This document shows, piece after piece, positions 1,390 to 9,677 of a DNA stretch of 64,000 nucleotides. Source of the stretch: an uncultured delta proteobacterium (GTDB lineage Bacteria > Myxococcota_A > Polyangia > Haliangiales > Haliangiaceae). The stretch lies in assembly GCA_963848295.1 (NCBI GenBank), contig CAWKDB010000010.1:2336001-2400000 (forward strand). The letters are read 5' to 3'. The notes beneath the pieces are model-generated. The model did not search any database. It was not told the DNA's origin and was given only the letters and a program-made list of their open reading frames with translations. Numbering within the stretch: position 1 is the stretch's first letter; every line of letters starts with the position of its first letter. A program made the translations under genes and the position numbers.

Positions 1390-2183
1390 CGCGACCTCCT
1401 GACGTGCCATTCCACGATCGTCTTGCACGCGATCGTCGCGGCCGCGATAGCGACGAGGATCGTCGCGACCGCGAATGCCGCCTGATACTGAAAATCGTTG
1501 TAGAGCACCTCGACCTGGAGCGGCACGGTGTCGGTCTTGCCCCGGATATGGCCCGACACGACCGAGACCGCACCGAACTCGCCGACCGCGCGCGCGGTGC
1601 ACAGGATCGCGCCCAGTAGTAGCGGCGACTTCAAGTTCGCGAGCGTGACTCGCCAGAAGGTCTGCCAAGGCGAGGCCCCGAGCGACAGCGCCGCGATCTC
1701 CTGCGCCGGGCCGCGCGCTTCGAGTGCCGGAATGAGCTCGCGCGCGACGAACGGAATCGTCACGAACGCGGTCGTCAGCACGATGCCCGGGACGGCGAAC
1801 ACGATCTTCAGGTGATGCGCCTCGAGGAACCGCCCGATCCAGCCGCGCGCACCGAACAACAGCACGAACATCATGCCGGCGATCACCGGCGACACCGCGA
1901 ACGGCAAGTCGATCAGCGCGACGAGCACGCGCTTGCCCGGGAACTGGAACCGCGTGATCGCCCACGCTGCCGCGAGCCCGAAGCCGATGTTGAGCGGCAC
2001 CGCGAGCGCCGCGACGAACAGCGTCAACCGGATCGCGGACCCCGAGTCCGGCTGCGTGATCGCCGCCCAGTACGGGCCCGCGCCGTCGCGAAACGCGACC
2101 GCGAACACGGTGACGAGCGGCACGACGAGAAACACGGCGAGAAACCCGAGTGCGACCGCGATCAACAATCGGCGCGCGATCAT
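1386..2183 (-). CDS. cysW: Sulfate ABC transporter permease
   Basis: [39 protein letters not shown] motifs; start MIARRLL overlaps the cysT stop. Confidence 0.95.
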
Positions 2184-3067
2184 GGCCCCACCACCGTCGC
2201 CGCCGGAGGCTGCATGGTCGGAGGTGGCGGCGAGCGCCGGCGCAAGGTCGGGATCGTGCGGCCGCGGCGGCGCCACGTCAGGCCGTTGATCGCGATCAAG
2301 ATCGCGAACGAGGCGACGAGCATGACGAGCGACAGCGCGGTCGCGCCGGCGTAGTCGAACTGATCGAGCTTCGTCATCACGAGCAACGGCGTGATCTCGG
2401 TCTTCATCGGCAGGTTGCCGCTGATGAACACGACCGAGCCGTACTCGCCGAGAGCGCGCGCGAACGCGAGCGCGAACCCGGTGACGAGCGCGGGCTGCAA
2501 CGCGGGCAACACGACGCGAACGAACGCCTGCCAGCGGGTCGCACCGAGCGTCGCCGCCGCCTCCTCGAGCCGCGGATCGAGTCCGGCGAGCACCGGCTGC
2601 ACGCTGCGCACGACGAACGGCAAACCGATGAACGTCAGCGCGATGACGACGCCGAGGCGCGAGTACGCTGCATCTATGCCGACCGCGTCGAGGTAACGGC
2701 CGATCACGCCGTGCGGGCCCCAGGTCGCGGTCAACGCGATACCGGCGACCGCGGTCGGCAACGCGAACGGCAGATCGACGAACGCATCGACGATGCGCCG
2801 GCCCGGGAAGTCGTAGCGGACGAGCACCCACGCGACGACCAGCCCGAACCCGACGTCGAGCGTCGCGGCGATCAGCGACGCTCCGAGCGATAGCGCGAAC
2901 GAGGCGAGCGCGCGGTCGGACGAGATCGTGTGCCAGAGCTCGCCGAGTGACATCGAGGACGTCTCGAGCGCGATCGTCGACAGCGGAATCACGACGAGCA
3001 GCCCGAGATACGCGAGCGTGATGCCGAGCGAGAGACCGAAGCCGGGGAGTACGCGGCGCGCCATCAC
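2180..3067 (-). CDS. cysT: Sulfate ABC transporter permease
   Basis: [45 protein letters not shown] motifs. Confidence 0.95.
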
Positions 3068-4071
3068 TACCTCGCGTAGATCGAATCGAACACGCCGCCG
3101 TCGGCGAAGTGCTTGCGCTGGACCGCGGCCCAGCCGCCGAGGTCGTCGATCGTGAACAGCTCGAGCGCGGGCAGCGGGTACTTCGCGGCGGCGATCGCGG
3201 AGCGCGGCCGATAGTGATCGCGCGCGATGATGTCCTGCGCGGGCTCGGTGTAGAGGAACTCGAGAAACGCGCGCGCGACCTCCGTCGTGCCATGGCGCAG
3301 GGCGTTGCTATCGACGACCGCGACCGGCGGCTCCGCGAGGATGCTGCGCGCCGGCACGACGATGTCGATCGCACCGGGCGCTTGCGCCTGCGCGAGATAC
3401 GCCTCGCTCTCCCACGCGAGCAGGACGTCGCCGATGCCGCGCTCGACGAACGTCGTGGTCGCGCCGCGCGCACCCGAGTCGAGCACCGGCACGTGGTGGT
3501 AGAGCGAGCGCACGAACTCGGTCGCGCCGGCCTCGCCTCCGCGTTGCAGCCCGTGGCCCCAAGCCGCGAGATACGCCCAGCGCGCGCCGCCCGAGGTCTT
3601 GGGATTCGGCGCGATCACCGCGACGTCGTCGCGCACGAGGTCGTCCCAGCCCGCGATGTGCTTCGGGTTGCCCTTGCGGACGACGAACACGATCGTCGAC
3701 GTGTACGGCGTCGCGCGGTGCGGCAGGCGGCTCTGCCAGTCGCTCGCCAGCAAGCCGTTCGCCGCGATCGCATCGATGTCGCCGGCGAGTGCGAGGCTGA
3801 CGACGTCGGCATCGAGGCCCCAGATCACCGACCGCGCCTGCTTGCCGGAGCCGCCGTGCGACTGGCGAATCGCGACCGCGATGTGGTGGCTCGCCTCGTA
3901 CGTCGCGGCGAACGCGGCATCGAGGTCCTGGTAGAGCTCGACGGTCGGGTCGTACGAGACGTTCAGCAGCTCGACCGACCCGTCGTCACCGCCCTCGCCA
4001 CACCCGAGCCCGAGCCCGAGCGCGAGCGCGAGCCCGAGCCCGATACTGAACGCGACCGCGAGCCGGGACAC
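3067..4071 (-). CDS. sbp: Sulfate/thiosulfate-binding lipoprotein
   Basis: [41 protein letters not shown] motifs; lipoprotein-type signal ending in GLGC. Confidence 0.95.
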
Positions 4072-4083
4072 GCGGCGCCACGG

Positions 4084-4099
4084 TGCATCGCCTAGGCCA
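4084..4099 (-). promoter_or_regulatory. sigma54 -24/-12 promoter for the sbp operon
   Basis: Minus strand TGGCCTAGGCGATGCA = GG-N10-GC, about 12 nt upstream of the sbp GTG and next to a sigma54 activator gene. Confidence 0.6.
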
Positions 4100-4125
4100 C
4101 CCGGTAAGCAGCTGATGAACCGATG

Positions 4126-4195
4126 TCCGCTATAACAGATTCTACGAAATATCGTGTATCACTCGAAATCTCGTGCGCTATCATGATATTTCGTG
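4126..4195. promoter_or_regulatory. Array of 14-bp pseudo-palindromic boxes (candidate regulator sites)
   Basis: TCCGCTATAACAGA 4126-4139; TACGAAATATCGTG 4143-4156; CTCGAAATCTCGTG 4162-4175; CATGATATTTCGTG 4182-4195. Confidence 0.6.
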
Positions 4196-5716
4196 GGTAT
4201 GGCACTCGACGGCCAGCTGTGGCGCGACGCTTCGCTGTCCGGCGACGTCGCCGATTTTTTCGAGCGGACCGGTGCGCGGCTGCTCGCCACGCTCGATGCC
4301 TCGACGATCGTCGTGCGGGTCGTCGACGGTTCGAGCGATCAGCATCACGTCGATACCGTCGCGGCGATCCGGCGCGGCGCGGTCGGGGTCGCGCACTCGG
4401 GGCGCGCGCGCACACCGCTGGGCGCCGCCGCGATGGCGCGCCTCCTCGCCTGGATCGAAGCGGGTATGCCCGAGCGCGCCGGCGGTCGCGGCGCGTCCGC
4501 GGTCGCGCGCGATCTACTGCGCGGGGTCGGCGAGCTCGACGAGGAATGGTTCGTGGTGCCGCTCGCCGCGCACGCCGAGCCGCTCGGCGCCTTGCTCGTG
4601 GCGGCGCGCGGGCTCGAGCCCCGCCAGCTCGCCGGGATCAGCGAGCCGATCTCCGCCGTGCTGTCGACCGAGCATGCGCGGCGCGAGCTCACGCGGCTGC
4701 GAGAAGCCGCGGAGGCCGACCGCGCGGCCGCCCTCGCCCGCCTGCAGATTCGCGATATCGGCGTCGCGATCGTGGGCGCCGACTCCGGTCTGCGCGACGT
4801 GATGAGGCAGGTCGAGCAAGTCGCTCCGACCGGCGCGCCGGTGTTGATCCTGGGCGAGACCGGCTCGGGCAAGGAGGTCGTCGCTCGCGCGATTCACGAG
4901 CGCTCCGATCGCGCGAGCGGGCCGGTGTTGCGCGTGAACTGCGGCGCGATCGCGCCCGAGCTCGTCGATTCCGAGCTGTTCGGCCACGAGCGCGGCAGCT
5001 TCACCGGCGCGGCGACTCAGCGCCGCGGCTGGTTCGAGCGCGCGGATGGCGGCACGCTGTTTCTCGACGAGATCGGCGAGCTGCCGCACGCGGCACAGGT
5101 CCGGCTGTTGCGGGTGTTGCAGGACGGCACGTTCGAGCGCGTCGGCGGATCGCGCCCGCTCTCGGTCGATGTTCGCGTGGTCGCCGCGACCCACAGCGAT
5201 CTCGCCGCGATGGTGCGCTCCAAGCTGTTTCGCGAAGACCTCTGGTATCGCATCAACACGTTCGTGATCCGGCTGCCGCCGCTACGCGAGCGCGTCGGCG
5301 ACATTCCGGTGCTCGCCGAGCACTTCGCGGATCGCGCGGGGCGCCGATTCGGCGCCGGTCCGCTGTCGCTCACCGCGAGCGACGTCGCTCTGCTCGCCGC
5401 GTACGACTGGCCCGGCAACGTCCGCGAGCTATCCGCGGTGATCGAGCGCGCGGCGATCCTGGGCGACGGTCGCCGGCTCGACGTCGCGCGCGCGCTCGGC
5501 GCGACCGATCGCGTCGCGCTCGCGGCGGACTCGGGAGACCGGTTCCCGACTCTCGACGACGCGATGCGCTCCCACATCGAGCGCGCGCTCGCTCGTGCCC
5601 GCGGCCGGATCGACGGGCCGAAAGGCGCGGCCGCACTACTCGCGATCCATCCGAACACGTTGCGCTCGCGCATGCACAAGCTCGGCGTCGCCTGGGACCG
5701 GTTCCGCCAGGTGTGA
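4193..5716 (+). CDS. sigma54-dependent transcriptional activator (GAF-like N-terminus, AAA+, FhlA-like HTH)
   Basis: GETGSGKE, ELFGHERGSFTGA, FLDEIGE, WPGNVREL, GAAALLAIHPNTLRSRM. Start may be ATG 4199. Confidence 0.93.
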   Translation: MGMALDGQLWRDASLSGDVADFFERTGARLLATLDASTIVVRVVDGSSDQHHVDTVAAIRRGAVGVAHSGRARTPLGAAAMARLLAWIEAGMPERAGGRGASAVARDLLRGVGELDEEWFVVPLAAHAEPLGALLVAARGLEPRQLAGISEPISAVLSTEHARRELTRLREAAEADRAAALARLQIRDIGVAIVGADSGLRDVMRQVEQVAPTGAPVLILGETGSGKEVVARAIHERSDRASGPVLRVNCGAIAPELVDSELFGHERGSFTGAATQRRGWFERADGGTLFLDEIGELPHAAQVRLLRVLQDGTFERVGGSRPLSVDVRVVAATHSDLAAMVRSKLFREDLWYRINTFVIRLPPLRERVGDIPVLAEHFADRAGRRFGAGPLSLTASDVALLAAYDWPGNVRELSAVIERAAILGDGRRLDVARALGATDRVALAADSGDRFPTLDDAMRSHIERALARARGRIDGPKGAAALLAIHPNTLRSRMHKLGVAWDRFRQV

Positions 5717-5718
5717 TA

Positions 5719-5776
5719 TCCGCTATAGTTGACAAGGCATCCGCTGTCGCGCTAGACATGTATCCGTTATGGCGGA
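5719..5776 (+). promoter_or_regulatory. sigma70-type promoter for cysH overlapped by three TCCGCTATAGCGGA-like boxes
   Basis: TTGACA 5729-5734, 18 nt, TAGACA 5753-5758; boxes start at 5719, 5740 and 5763. Confidence 0.55.
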
Positions 5777-6476
5777 TGACAGCTCGACCTTGCCGCGGGC
5801 GCTCGAGGGAGCCCCTGTGTTGGATGTCTTGCGCTGGGCGGCGACCGCCTTCCCACGGGTAACGTTCGCGACCGGCTTCGGCGCCGAGGGATGCGTGCTC
5901 ATCGACCTGATCGCGCGCCACCACCTGCCGATCGATCTGTTCACGCTCGACACCGGTGTGCTGTTTCGCGAGACGTATGCGCTGTGGCGCGAGCTCGAAC
6001 GCCACTACGGCGTCACGATTCGAGCGGTCCGTCCGGCTCAGACGATCGACCAGCAAGCTGCGCACCACGGCGCCGCCCTGTGGTCGCGCGATCCGGACCG
6101 CTGCTGCGAGCTCCGCAAGATCGCGCCGCTGCGCGCCGAGCTGTCCGGGTTCGACGCCTGGATCACCGCGATCCGCAGGGAGCAAACGCCCGAGCGCTCG
6201 ACCGCGCGCGTCGTCGAGCACGACGCGAAGTTTGGTCTGATCAAGGTCAACCCGCTTGCCGCGTGGACCCACGAAGACGTGTGGGGCCACATCTACCTCC
6301 ACGACGTTCCGTACAACCCGCTCCACGAGCGCGGCTATCCGTCGATCGGCTGCGAGCCGTGCACCTCCGCGATCGTGCCGGGCGAGAGCCTGCGCGCGGG
6401 TCGCTGGCGCGGCGCCGGCAAGCGCGAATGCGGGCTGCACGTGGCGGCTCCGGTCCAAGCCAAGGAGAGATCATGA
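5769..6476 (+). CDS. cysH: APS/PAPS reductase (4Fe-4S, APS-type)
   Basis: LDTG, RCCELRK, GYPSIGCEPCT, RAGRW, ECGLH. Confidence 0.95.
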   Translation: MADDSSTLPRALEGAPVLDVLRWAATAFPRVTFATGFGAEGCVLIDLIARHHLPIDLFTLDTGVLFRETYALWRELERHYGVTIRAVRPAQTIDQQAAHHGAALWSRDPDRCCELRKIAPLRAELSGFDAWITAIRREQTPERSTARVVEHDAKFGLIKVNPLAAWTHEDVWGHIYLHDVPYNPLHERGYPSIGCEPCTSAIVPGESLRAGRWRGAGKRECGLHVAAPVQAKERS

Positions 6477-7120
6477 CGCTCTACCCGGTGTTCCTGAAGC
6501 TCGATGCGCTGCCGGTCGTCATCGTCGGCGGCGGACAGGTCGCGGCGGAGAAGCTCGCCGGCCTCGTCGCCGCCGGTGCGCGCGTCACGGTCGTCGCGCC
6601 ACACGTCTCGCCCGCGATTCGCTCGCAGGCGACGGTCATCGACGGCGCCGGCTCGCCCCGCGACGGCGGCACCGCCGAAGGGCGGTGCGGCTTGATCGAA
6701 CGCGAGTTCCGCGCGAGCGATCTCGATGGCACGCGCTGGGTCGTCGCCGCCGCGACGCCCGACGTCAATCGCGCGGTGGCGGTCGCCGCTGAAGCGCGCG
6801 GCTTGTTCGTCAATGCGGTCGACGATCCCGACGCCGCGACCGCCTACCTCGGTGGCGTCGTGCGCCGCGGCGATGTCGAGATCGCGATCTCCACGAACGG
6901 GCGCGCTCCCGCGCTCGCCGGCTTGCTGCGCGAGGCGCTCGATGCGGTGTTGCCGGATGATCTCGAGCGCTGGATCGATGTCGCGATCGCGGAGCGCACC
7001 GAGCACCGTCGCCGGCGCGTTCCGATCGCCGAGCGCCGCCCGTTGCTCCTCCGCGCACTCGATCGGCTGTACGAGCAACGCCTCGGCCCGACCTCGGAGC
7101 AGCCGCGGAGCACGTCGTGA
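6473..7120 (+). CDS. Precorrin-2 dehydrogenase/sirohydrochlorin ferrochelatase (CysG N-terminal half), with a 19-aa insertion
   Basis: MTLYPVFLKL, VGGGQVA, VNAVDDP, ISTNGRAPALA; ATG overlaps the cysH stop. Confidence 0.92.
   Translation: MTLYPVFLKLDALPVVIVGGGQVAAEKLAGLVAAGARVTVVAPHVSPAIRSQATVIDGAGSPRDGGTAEGRCGLIEREFRASDLDGTRWVVAAATPDVNRAVAVAAEARGLFVNAVDDPDAATAYLGGVVRRGDVEIAISTNGRAPALAGLLREALDAVLPDDLERWIDVAIAERTEHRRRRVPIAERRPLLLRALDRLYEQRLGPTSEQPRSTS
6638..6699. repeat. 57-bp in-frame hairpin insertion, copy 1
   Basis: ATCGA direct repeats at 6638 and 6695; perfect hairpin GCACCGCC-GAAG-GGCGGTGC. Confidence 0.8.
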
Positions 7121-7935
7121 CCGGCAGCGTCGCGCTCGTCGGTGCGGGCCCGGGCGATCCCGAGCTGCTCACCGTGCGCGCGGTCGACCGCCTGCGCGCC
7201 GCAGATCTCGTGCTCTACGACGCGCTCACGCCCGAGAGCTTGCTCGCGCTCGCGCCGAACGCGAAGCGATTCTTCGTCGGCAAACGCGCGGGACGTCATT
7301 CGATCGACGGACGGGGCTTGTCCCCGGCCGGCAGCGCCGCCGCAGGACGGCGCGGTTGGATCGAGCAACGGGAGATCCACGGCCTGATGATCCGCGCCGC
7401 GCGGCGCGGTGATCGCGTCGTCCGGCTCAAGTGCGGCGATCCGTTCGTGCTCGGCCGCGGCGGCGAAGAGGCGCTCGCACTCGAGGCGGCGGGCGTGACG
7501 TACGAGATCGTGCCCGGCCTGAGCTCCGCGCTCGCGGCACCCGCGCTCGCCGGCATCCCGGTGACCCATCGCGGGGTCGCGGCCGGGTTCGCCGTGATCT
7601 CCGGCCACGCGGCGAGCGCGTACGAACCGATGATCGACTCGATCGCGCCGGGTGCCCTGACGCTCGTCGTGTTGATGGGCCTGCGCACGCGCACCGAGCT
7701 CGCCGCGCACCTCGTCGCCCGCGGCTGGTCGGCCGAGACGCCGGCGGCGATCGTGCTCGCCGCGTCGCAACCGGGCGAGACGCGCTACCTCGGTACGCTC
7801 GCGACGCTCGGCGAGCTCGCGGCCAGCGCCGACATCGAGTCGCCCGGCGTGATCGTGATCGGCGAGGTCGTCCGCTTGGCGGACGCGATCGGCCGGCGCG
7901 AAGTCATCTTGCCCGAAGCTGCGAGGTCGTCATGA
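7117..7935 (+). CDS. cobA: Uroporphyrinogen-III C-methyltransferase, with a 19-aa insertion
   Basis: VGAGPGDPELLT, VVRLKCGDPFVLGRGGEE, IVPGLSS, GIPVTHRG. Confidence 0.95.
   Translation: MTGSVALVGAGPGDPELLTVRAVDRLRAADLVLYDALTPESLLALAPNAKRFFVGKRAGRHSIDGRGLSPAGSAAAGRRGWIEQREIHGLMIRAARRGDRVVRLKCGDPFVLGRGGEEALALEAAGVTYEIVPGLSSALAAPALAGIPVTHRGVAAGFAVISGHAASAYEPMIDSIAPGALTLVVLMGLRTRTELAAHLVARGWSAETPAAIVLAASQPGETRYLGTLATLGELAASADIESPGVIVIGEVVRLADAIGRREVILPEAARSS
7303..7364. repeat. 57-bp in-frame hairpin insertion, copy 2
   Basis: ATCGA direct repeats at 7303 and 7360; hairpins CGGGG-CTTGT-CCCCG and GCGCCGCC-GCAG-GACGGCGC; 36/52 internal positions match copy 1. Confidence 0.8.
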
Positions 7936-9677
7936 GTGTCACTGCTGCTCCGATCCCGGTCGGCCGCCTCGGCTTTGCGAACCACGAGGACATCGACCTG
8001 TTCGTGCAACGCCTCGATGCGTTCGAGCGCGGCGAGCTGTCCGCCGACGACTGGCGGTCATTTCGTTTGCTCAACGGCGTCTACGGGCAACGCCAGGACG
8101 GCGTGATGATGCTGCGCGCGAAGCTCCCCGCCGGCATCGCGACGCCCGCTCAGCTCGAAGCGCTCGCCGAGGTCGCCGATCGGTTCGCCCACGGCAAAGG
8201 CCACATCACGACCCGGCAAAACGTCCAGTTCCACTTCGTGGCGGCCACCGAGGTCGAGACCGCGCTGCGGTTGCTCGCCGACTCCGGGATCACGACGCGC
8301 GAGGCGTGCGGACATTCAGTGCGCAACTGGACGTGCTGCCCGTTCGCCGGCGTCGCGCGCGGCGAAGCGTTCGACCCGACACCGTACGTCGAGGCCCTCG
8401 CTCGCCACTTGCTGCGCGGCCCGTACTCGTCGTCGCTGCCGCGCAAGCTCAAGCCGTCGCTCGGCGGCTGCTGCGGCACCGACTGTTCGCAGGCGTTCAT
8501 CAACGACCTCGGGCTGCTCGCGCGCTCGCGCGATGGCGAGATCGGGTTCCAGCTGCTCGCCGGCGGTGGCTTGTCGACGCTGCGCCGCAGCGCGCTGATC
8601 GTCGAAGACTTCGTACCCGCCGTCGAGGTCCTCGAAGCTGCCGACGCGGTGGTCCGGGTGTTTCATCGCATCGGCAATCGCCACAATCGGGCGAAGGCGC
8701 GGCTCAAGTGGGCGATCGACAAGATCGGCTCGGAGGCCTTCCTCGCGGAGTACCGCGCCGAACGCGACGTGATTCGCGCCGAGGGTGGCGTGCCACTCGT
8801 GCTACCGCCGCAACCGGAGGTCCGGCCCGCGTTGCGCACTCCGCTCGGCGTGTTCGCGTCGGTGACCCCGGAGTACAGCGCGTGGGCGACCGACAGCGTG
8901 CGCGCCCAGAAACAACACGGCTTCTCGGCCGTCGTGATCCGCCTCGTGCTCGGCGACGTCACCGCGCCACAGCTGCGTTCGCTCGCTCGGTTGTGCGTCC
9001 ACTATGGCGACGGCGAGCTGCGCACGACGAACGAGCAGAACCTCGTGCTGCGCTGGGTCGCGACTGCGCGGTTGCCCGCGTTGCATCGCGAGCTCGCCGC
9101 GATCGGGCTCGCACGCTCCGGTGCGAACACGATCGCCGACGTGACGAGCTGCCCGGGCGCTTCGACTTGCAAGCTCGCGGTCACCGCGTCACGCGGGCTC
9201 GGCGCGACCCTGACCGAGCAGCTCGACGACTTGATCCGGCGCCGTCCCGAGCTCGCCGCCGCGACTCGCGGCCTCGACATCAAGGTCTCGGGCTGTCCGC
9301 ACGGTTGCGGTCAGCACTACATCGCCGGCATCGGGTTCCAGGGCGGGATGCGCAAGGTCGCGGGCCGTCCCGCGCCGCAGTATCTCGTCTATGTCGGCGG
9401 CGGCATCACCGCCGATCGCGCGGACTTCGGGCGGTTGATCGCGAAGGTGCCGGCGCGACGCGCGGGCGCCGCCCTCGAACGGTTGCTCGACTTCTATACC
9501 GAGCACGGCGGCACCGGGCATACGTTCTGGACCGACATCGCGACCGACGAGCTCAAGGGCGTGATCGGCGACCTCGCGACGCTGCGCGACGAGGATGCGA
9601 TCGAGGCCGACTTCGTGGATCTCGGCGAAACCAGCGCGTTCGAGGTCTCGAACAGCGAGGGCGAATGCGCGTCGTAG
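7932..9677 (+). CDS. Ferredoxin-type sulfite/nitrite reductase hemoprotein
   Basis: GVYGQRQ, ITTRQNVQFH, LPRK; siroheme/Fe-S ligands SCPGASTCKLA and SGCPHGCGQH; ATG overlaps the cobA stop. Confidence 0.92.
   Translation: MSVTAAPIPVGRLGFANHEDIDLFVQRLDAFERGELSADDWRSFRLLNGVYGQRQDGVMMLRAKLPAGIATPAQLEALAEVADRFAHGKGHITTRQNVQFHFVAATEVETALRLLADSGITTREACGHSVRNWTCCPFAGVARGEAFDPTPYVEALARHLLRGPYSSSLPRKLKPSLGGCCGTDCSQAFINDLGLLARSRDGEIGFQLLAGGGLSTLRRSALIVEDFVPAVEVLEAADAVVRVFHRIGNRHNRAKARLKWAIDKIGSEAFLAEYRAERDVIRAEGGVPLVLPPQPEVRPALRTPLGVFASVTPEYSAWATDSVRAQKQHGFSAVVIRLVLGDVTAPQLRSLARLCVHYGDGELRTTNEQNLVLRWVATARLPALHRELAAIGLARSGANTIADVTSCPGASTCKLAVTASRGLGATLTEQLDDLIRRRPELAAATRGLDIKVSGCPHGCGQHYIAGIGFQGGMRKVAGRPAPQYLVYVGGGITADRADFGRLIAKVPARRAGAALERLLDFYTEHGGTGHTFWTDIATDELKGVIGDLATLRDEDAIEADFVDLGETSAFEVSNSEGECAS

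Follow-up and report, generated by a model that had tools for sequence, protein, structure and literature searches.

A 57-bp two-hairpin repeat inserted in frame at (T)CGA cores in genes of an uncultured delta proteobacterium

How repeats of the RPE, SDR and CGTC types enter genes has been open since 2000, because to our knowledge neither an enzyme nor a precise junction is known for them. The palindromic elements of Rickettsia (RPE), and likewise those of Wolbachia (WPE), are short structured sequences that extend unrelated conserved proteins in frame, and no mobiliser is reported for them (PMC2229807, PMC10969869). Intragenic REPs are often located in DNA repair genes and tRNA synthetases, and CGTC REPs occur without a linked transposase, as far as the available text of PMC3733652 describes them. 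The TnpA of IS200/IS605 releases its element as a single-strand circle and selects tetranucleotide targets by pairing with guides within the element (excerpts of PMC5027513 and PMC8266576), and members of this family show a lagging-strand bias (excerpts of PMC5027513).

The genome under study (G000) comprises 7.78 Mb with 68% GC in an assembly that is 85% complete, and the window is the whole 64-kb stretch of it that was analysed (G000:C10:2336001-2400000). Within the window, the sequence-only reading had proposed a 57-bp insert bounded by ATCGA repeats in each of two neighbouring siroheme genes. Indeed, two 62-bp spans at 6638-6699 and 7303-7364 (+) carry ATCGA at each end, 57 bp apart, align with each other without gaps (36/52 internal identities) and lie in frame in their host genes (Pfam NAD_binding_7/Sirohm_synth_M and TP_methylase, respectively). 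These copies, A and B, are the only ones within the window (Table 1). Positions 2180-9677 of the window form a sulfate uptake and assimilation cluster comprising minus-strand ABC transporter genes, a sigma-54 activator, PAPS reductase, the split cysG halves and sulfite reductase, where the transporters and the activator are named from reading the sequence.

Table 1. Positions of the two element copies and their host genes, numbered from the first letter of the window
Feature	Position	Strand	Remarks
Element copy A	6643..6699	+	57 bp; family positions 6-62 under the best-fitting boundary, as suggested by filled/empty pairs; ends in its own ATCGA
Copy A target core	6638..6642	+	family positions 1-5; likely host-derived; single core in relatives
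Copy A hairpin 1	6641..6667	+	pairs 4-30 and 6-28 to 13-21; imperfect in copy A; family covariation
Copy A hairpin 2	6669..6688	+	8-bp stem, 4-nt loop
Element copy B	7308..7364	+	57 bp; family positions 6-62
Copy B target core	7303..7307	+	one copy only in relatives
Copy B hairpin 1	7306..7332	+	family covariation
Copy B hairpin 2	7334..7353	+	one C-A mismatch
Host gene 1: precorrin-2 dehydrogenase (CysG N-terminal half)	6473..7120	+	sole copy found in assembly; dN/dS 0.26 vs G096
Host gene 2: uroporphyrinogen-III C-methyltransferase (CobA/SUMT)	7117..7935	+	sole copy found in assembly; dN/dS 0.22 vs G096

Orthologues had been expected to show empty sites at both genes. For cobA this is the case: the insert is missing in 13/13 aligned homologues and corresponds to a 19-residue gap against PDB 2ybq and 2ybo, the 12/12 near relatives matched by motif, G010 among them, are insert-free with a single core, and six distant loci gave no motif match. 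For the dehydrogenase the expectation holds in part, in that relatives are ~15-19 residues shorter and several carry a single ATCGA, but the loop is naturally variable. This loop is insertion-tolerant in general, because G046 and G004 (loci L120 and L016) carry unrelated extra residues there. Both sites are filled in G096, a genome ~90% identical to G000. A further contig (X4, ~88% identity) spans copy A to 7 bases past its end and is too short to bridge the site.

The distribution of filled and empty sites shows movement of the element, most of it after G000 and the ~90%-identical genome diverged. When the best 24 copies of G096 are compared with G000, 15 coincide with exact 57-bp gaps and one more with such a gap beside a nearby indel, the rest being one 66-bp gap, one decayed copy, three shared copies and three unplaced ones. 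Similarly, 161 unique single copies of other genomes comprise 27 with exact 57-bp empty sites, five that are shared and 129 without a close orthologue. The G000 copies in SNF2 and Lhr are absent from G096 in 5/5 cases (57, 57, 57, 54 and net 51 bp). One acyltransferase site lacks the element in G000 but carries it in G077 and in G006, the two copies being oppositely oriented, and therefore gains, not only losses, occur. We consider the repeat to be almost certainly a mobile non-autonomous element, and the earlier description of it as non-autonomous, target-specific, of a length divisible by three (3n), in frame and matched by empty sites in orthologues stands throughout.

As had been predicted, further copies are present genome-wide: an iterated profile (E<=0.01) recovers 173 at 149 loci of G000 versus none in the reversed genome, with an average identity of 71% (125 copies). 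According to a codon-model gene caller made for the analysis (6717 genes in G000), 104 of these loci are inside genes, 14 straddle gene ends and 31 are intergenic. TCGA sites in G000 are 90% genic, and relative to this share coding copies are depleted (p 2e-11), yet they still form the majority. While copies A and B are sense insertions in the same orientation, as described previously, sense copies are the minority class within genes, where 67/104 are antisense to the gene. The reading frames used follow target supply, and the main codon phase in G000 holds 59 antisense versus 24 sense copies (p 2e-5), an excess not seen in other genomes (37 sense and 30 antisense by rough gene calls). Element loci are mildly clustered, with 13 neighbours at <2 kb versus 5.8 expected (p 0.0055). 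Multi-copy loci number 11, all same-direction, nine of them at exact 57-bp spacing and with up to five copies. The inner junctions of two arrays carry flank bases, which indicates that tandem arrays likely arise after insertion by local duplication.

Pfam families could be assigned to 51 of the best 60 of 96 host genes, and the hosts named in this way include ArgRS, Era, EF-G, RecG, UvrD, SbcD, two Lhr, SNF2, PlsX (341 residues over 322 profile positions) and a SurA-like protein. ArgRS, Era, cobA and the dehydrogenase are each the only copy found in the assembly. The ArgRS gene (L071, G000:C11:700343-702295) carries five tandem copies that amount to 95 extra residues within the catalytic domain region, and the array is missing in 5/5 relatives searched. 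Repair and helicase genes recur among the hosts (SNF2, SbcD, UvrD, two Lhr and RecG; L036, L039, L048, L058, L074 and L076), and one Lhr gene carries copies at three sites; a similar lean to repair genes is reported for REPs in the accessible part of PMC3733652.

The sequence-only reading had assigned a single hairpin to both copies. This hairpin is real, but it is the second of two and hairpin 1 had been missed: the element consists of hairpin 1 at positions 4-30, hairpin 2 at positions 32-51 and an 11-nt tail ending in the core. The compensatory change from A-T to G-C quoted for it is likewise seen, but the second quoted copy also has one C-A mismatch. Single copies fold no better than shuffles (z -0.81 and -0.97, + strand), and the structure is established by family covariation rather than by single-copy folding. 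Across 54 aligned copies, 93% of cells pair under the two-hairpin model, compared with 31-57% when it is slid, and 88 double-sided stem changes are present versus 19.9 in shuffles, a count reached in 0/500 shuffles that is no probability, the copies being related. Within the stems, G-T outnumbers A-C (69:35 in G000, 31:4 elsewhere), and thus the forward strand is the folded strand. This G-T tolerance fits RNA as well as DNA, and DNA and RNA folding energies agree and do not tell which molecule folds. Five orthologous pairs show 7% divergence versus 10% in the flanks, with 5/10 changed pairs broken on one side; with no clear in-place conservation in these pairs, the structure was likely selected during spread. 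Selection on structure after insertion had been hinted at by the cobA pair and was not borne out by the same five pairs. No Rfam family scored above its gathering score (best E 0.96), and no covariation was found for terminal pairing of the element.

The two ATCGA copies, described earlier as direct repeats, are not a 5-bp target duplication: the left copy is for the most part target, and the right copy belongs largely to the element. On the left, positions 1-2 are variable (60/94 have T at position 2), right positions 58-59 are conserved, and no left-right concordance was found at positions 1, 2 and 5, which argues that there is no 5-bp duplication. At the 27 empty sites, the base of the empty allele agrees with the left copy at position 1 (12:2) and at positions 3-5 (6:1), is mixed at position 2 (3:2), and agrees with the right copy at position 6 (9:1), in a comparison with relatives that are 10% diverged. 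Counter-cases are one SNF2 site, which follows the right copy at positions 1, 2 and 5, and ArgRS, which follows the left copy at position 6. The data are best fitted by an element that ends with a core of its own and enters just after (T)CGA; the junction may lie anywhere inside the core. Target specificity is retained from the sequence-only reading, but for a looser (T)CGA core and not strictly ATCGA. An over-represented palindrome as target was rejected, no 6- or 8-mer palindrome lying above Markov expectation.

The CG is almost constant at either end of the element, and right ends with AG instead of CG recur that do not match the empty site. The apparent loss of CG at position 4 in 8/27 empty sites presumably reflects wobble-position divergence in antisense hosts. 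In addition, stem position 28 is correlated with the base that follows the right end, A28 coinciding with T in 10/21 versus 15/73 (p 0.023) and, in a second set that overlaps the first and has lineages in common with it, in 7/14 versus 9/50 (p 0.031). The correlation is weak, as if the foot of the stem pairs with the target.

Of 175 foreign copies, 170 have a first hairpin that is defined, and these measure 57 (125), 54 (37), 51 (2) and 63 bp (1), besides five that are not 3n, so that 165/170 are 3n; the 54-bp subfamily is present in other genomes. Foreign copies within coding-like flanks are 3n in 67/67 cases, and the non-3n single copies of G000 lie outside genes in 6/6 cases, a pattern that the gene caller partly presupposes. 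Coding-like flanks on both sides are present at 3/45 outside-gene loci, compared with 56/76 in-gene controls passing the same test; two of the three are in frame and stop-free and one is at a gene junction. No gene broken by the element was found among these 45 outside-ORF loci, and the four host genes tested against G096 have dN/dS values of 0.07-0.26, which is to say that they evolve under purifying selection. Together, the 3n lengths, the unbroken genes and the low host dN/dS suggest that the insert is very probably translated rather than removed from the RNA. The 18-19 residues it adds would likely form tolerated loops, judging from alignment gaps, from which loop placement was read. With ~90% of cores within genes, only 3n lengths and mostly stop-free frames would persist.

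A covariance model (E<=1e-6) matches 40/85 other genomes of the genus. It gives one weak match apiece in 3/55 genomes from elsewhere in the order, and single weak matches were obtained in 6/133 genomes of the class outside the genus. G000, G096, G035, G031, G046 and G084 each have at least 51 copies among the best 59 scored. A right-half pattern run over 185,579 species genomes yielded 70 loci, mostly titled Kofleriaceae and otherwise Deltaproteobacteria or Acidobacteriota bins, and metagenomes contributed at least 123 loci; viral contigs, phage and plasmid records gave no match. The element is nearly confined to one genus.

A RAYT/TnpA or an IS110-type enzyme had been suggested as mobiliser, and neither suggestion is supported in G000, where none of nine Y1 matches has a copy within 1.7 kb and where, in an assembly 85% complete, no IS110 domains were found. 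Remote Y1 candidates of G000 are likewise not flanked by the element, and 86 transposase/RT loci gave a single degenerate match (E 2e-6). Y1 proteins, weakly RAYT-like, are present in 88/91 genomes of the genus, and their counts do not follow element counts across genomes. Among candidates rejected, the conserved Y1 gene of G000 (L001) has a close orthologue in G096 only and a profile that does not follow the element, and the leader of a multi-copy Y1 family is a different repeat. This family (L002-L007 and other G000 loci) encodes ~230 residues behind a conserved structured leader of ~400 bp, is only weakly RAYT-like and includes decayed copies. No recurring enzyme emerged among the neighbours of 382 loci, where representatives were read and belong to kinases and other large families, and a search for an autonomous parent by half-elements returned only shorter variants and decayed copies.

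The flank test itself can succeed, since two other Y1 genes, serving as positive control, are flanked by repeats of their own. These Y1-like genes (G000:C10:1101369-1102322 and C10:2679446-2680555) have long C-terminal tails, and the inverted short repeats around them occur 49 and 117 times in the genome and have no relation to the 57-bp element; the pair resembles TIRYT/subclass 2.1 as described in the accessible part of PMC6006769. Elsewhere on the same contig, two IS91/ISCR-like frames lie back to back beside an integrase gene (G000:C10:52700-54600), and a 2.3-kb insertion sequence (G000:C10:55265-57604) recurs in near-identical copies in at least eight other places.

The repeat is non-coding in origin. 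An HUH single-strand route fits best, with a confidence short of even, because one strand folds, into two hairpins, the tetranucleotide target shares the core and no duplication is seen, features that mark HUH transposition (PMC8266576, PMC5027513). The element is likely selfish, and we suggest, on a similarly tentative footing, that its folded strand is cut and rejoined at the core by a trans-acting HUH-type (Y1-like) transposase. Such a transposase would peel the forward strand out after the terminal TCGA of the element, the excised strand would circularise with its junction in the foot of hairpin 1, and the circle would be pasted after a chromosomal (T)CGA; the same core on the target and on the element end would mimic a direct repeat. 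No lagging-strand bias was found (74:74, with the origin placed by GC skew in an incomplete assembly). Neither a spacer between the left cut and the hairpin nor a guide fitting the IS608 pattern was found, covariation being negative, and none was seen for a guide in the hairpin 2 loop. A more specific version, which we hold to be doubtful, is a minimal self-guided single-strand transposon, where the 3' arm of hairpin 1 would pair across the circle junction and read both sides of the target, the enzyme would be an undescribed in-trans HUH type, and selection at the level of the element would have quantised its length to codons (57 and 54 bp).

The strand-specific fold with its G-U tolerance, the conserved structure under a diverse sequence (mean identity 71%) and three full RT matches in G000 would also suit movement through RNA, in which a reverse transcriptase of the host, be it of a retron, group II-like or other kind, would write the copy into the nicked TCGA core. 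We regard this as unlikely: no copy lies within 7.5 kb of the three RT matches (best E at RT loci 0.0016), the ends are precise and without target duplication, and some partial copies are without the 5' half, others without the 3' half. Distinctly unlikely is a site-specific recombinase (tyrosine, serine or IS110-type) that would cross a 57-bp circle in within the core; the core is palindromic, 4 bp long and common to both, the junction could be anywhere from position 2 to 5 and G000 has 15 tyrosine recombinase matches, but the target is far looser than recombinase sites, the element is asymmetric between strands, IS110 was not found in G000, as stated above, and a double-strand circle of 57 bp would be very short.

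Head-to-tail arrays at exact 57-bp spacing and an IS91/ISCR-like gene in G000 recall a miniature IS91-type rolling-circle element that would start with CGAY, end at position 59 and insert before CGAY, and for IS801 CGAC is one of the reported targets, with the transposase able to work in trans (PMC3189936). This route is improbable, given that positions 3-5 follow the left copy, that the inner junctions of two arrays copy flank bases as local duplication would, and that Y2 was not found in G096, G035, G046 and G031 (four of the six richest genomes, 77-96% complete) and G093 has 17 Y2 matches with one weak element match. The invariant CG, ends that can pair weakly and active DDE-like insertion sequences in G000 are compatible with a classical MITE that a DDE transposase would insert while duplicating the 2-bp CG, a route which recurrent AG right ends, terminal pairing without covariation and the internal position of the hairpins render very improbable. 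Finally, the copies might be kept for a function at their sites, as an RNA control element or a protein motif, rather than as parasites. The conserved structure, the antisense excess of G000 and the repair helicases among the hosts point in this direction, but most sites are lineage-specific, insertions occur in several frames and on both strands, among the genomes compared only G000 has the antisense excess and the five orthologous pairs show little conservation in place, so that this is the most improbable of the explanations.

Whatever moves it, the family offers many filled/empty pairs, a defined core and a covarying two-hairpin structure, and copy numbers across the ~90 genomes of the genus run from zero to >100; profiling can therefore be used to search for the enzyme, and a 57-mer to test it. 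It also serves as a natural map of where bacterial proteins tolerate insertions, with ~100 such points in proteins that include ArgRS, Era, EF-G, RecG, UvrD, PlsX and Lhr, and a case of a parasite whose length is shaped by the genetic code. Were the HUH-type element to find its target through a guide, it would be a very small retargetable insertion unit. If it is indeed self-guided, it would be among the smallest transposons known and a natural in-frame linker-scanning mutagen, one that may have grown a 95-residue loop in an essential tRNA synthetase.

With IS200/IS605, the element shares strand specificity and two subterminal hairpins on one strand, the right one 11 nt from the end, and its best-fitting junction would likewise place it 3' of a tetranucleotide without duplication. 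It differs in that no parent with the same ends was found, no lagging-strand bias is seen, the left hairpin lies at the junction and the size is far smaller; the comparison includes the non-autonomous derivatives of this family (PATE). Classical MITEs were set aside, as terminal inverted repeats and a target duplication were not found and a 2-bp CG duplication is disfavoured. So were integron attC sites (57 bp, GTT-like tail), because the junction is not at G-TT and two hairpins are present.

The RPE analogy drawn by the sequence-only reading is apt for behaviour, namely in-frame fusion into conserved proteins, but not for build. RPEs are long stem-loops of 105-146 bp with terminal inverted repeats in the accessible part of PMC2229807, whereas the element has 54-57 bp and two internal hairpins. 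Also unlike RPEs, it resides in a large GC-rich host genome, has a defined target core and uses several frames; a single genome holds ~100 coding loci, and a close relative shows many exact empty sites. Nostoc SDR5 is similar in being a very small repeat with precise insertion into a short palindromic CGATCG-like site, as far as PMC4390886 relates; however, by this citing description SDR5 targets the over-represented octamer HIP1, and the target here is a 4-5 bp core, with HIP1 at an observed/expected ratio of 0.98 in G000.

GTAG and CGTC REPs, including the intragenic REPs of Opitutus terrae, resemble the element as short hairpin repeats, some of them in genes (available text of PMC3733652). 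In the same text REPs have one hairpin and an unpaired tag and are mostly intergenic and in inverted dimers, whereas the element has two unrelated hairpins and is 70% intragenic and head-to-tail. As a CGTC REP, described there with an unpaired terminal CGTC, one 8-9 bp stem and a CCA tail, it was rejected: its reverse-strand CGTC sits in the paired foot of hairpin 1, it has two stems, and its multi-copy loci are same-direction in 11/11 cases, compared with dimers that are mostly head-to-head and negligibly head-to-tail. As a GTAG REP/REPtron it was likewise rejected, position frequencies revealing no GTAG or GGAG foot 5' of the hairpin and no Y1 gene being flanked by the 57-bp element. No description of the element was found in the openly available full-text articles searched; the intragenic repeats listed in the supplements of PMC3733652 may bear on its novelty. 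On the features tested, the element belongs to none of the RPE, REP, MITE and IS200/IS605 groups. In-frame palindromic inserts are already known as a kind; what sets this element apart is its build, its scale, the 57- and 54-bp subfamilies, the empty sites and the ArgRS array.
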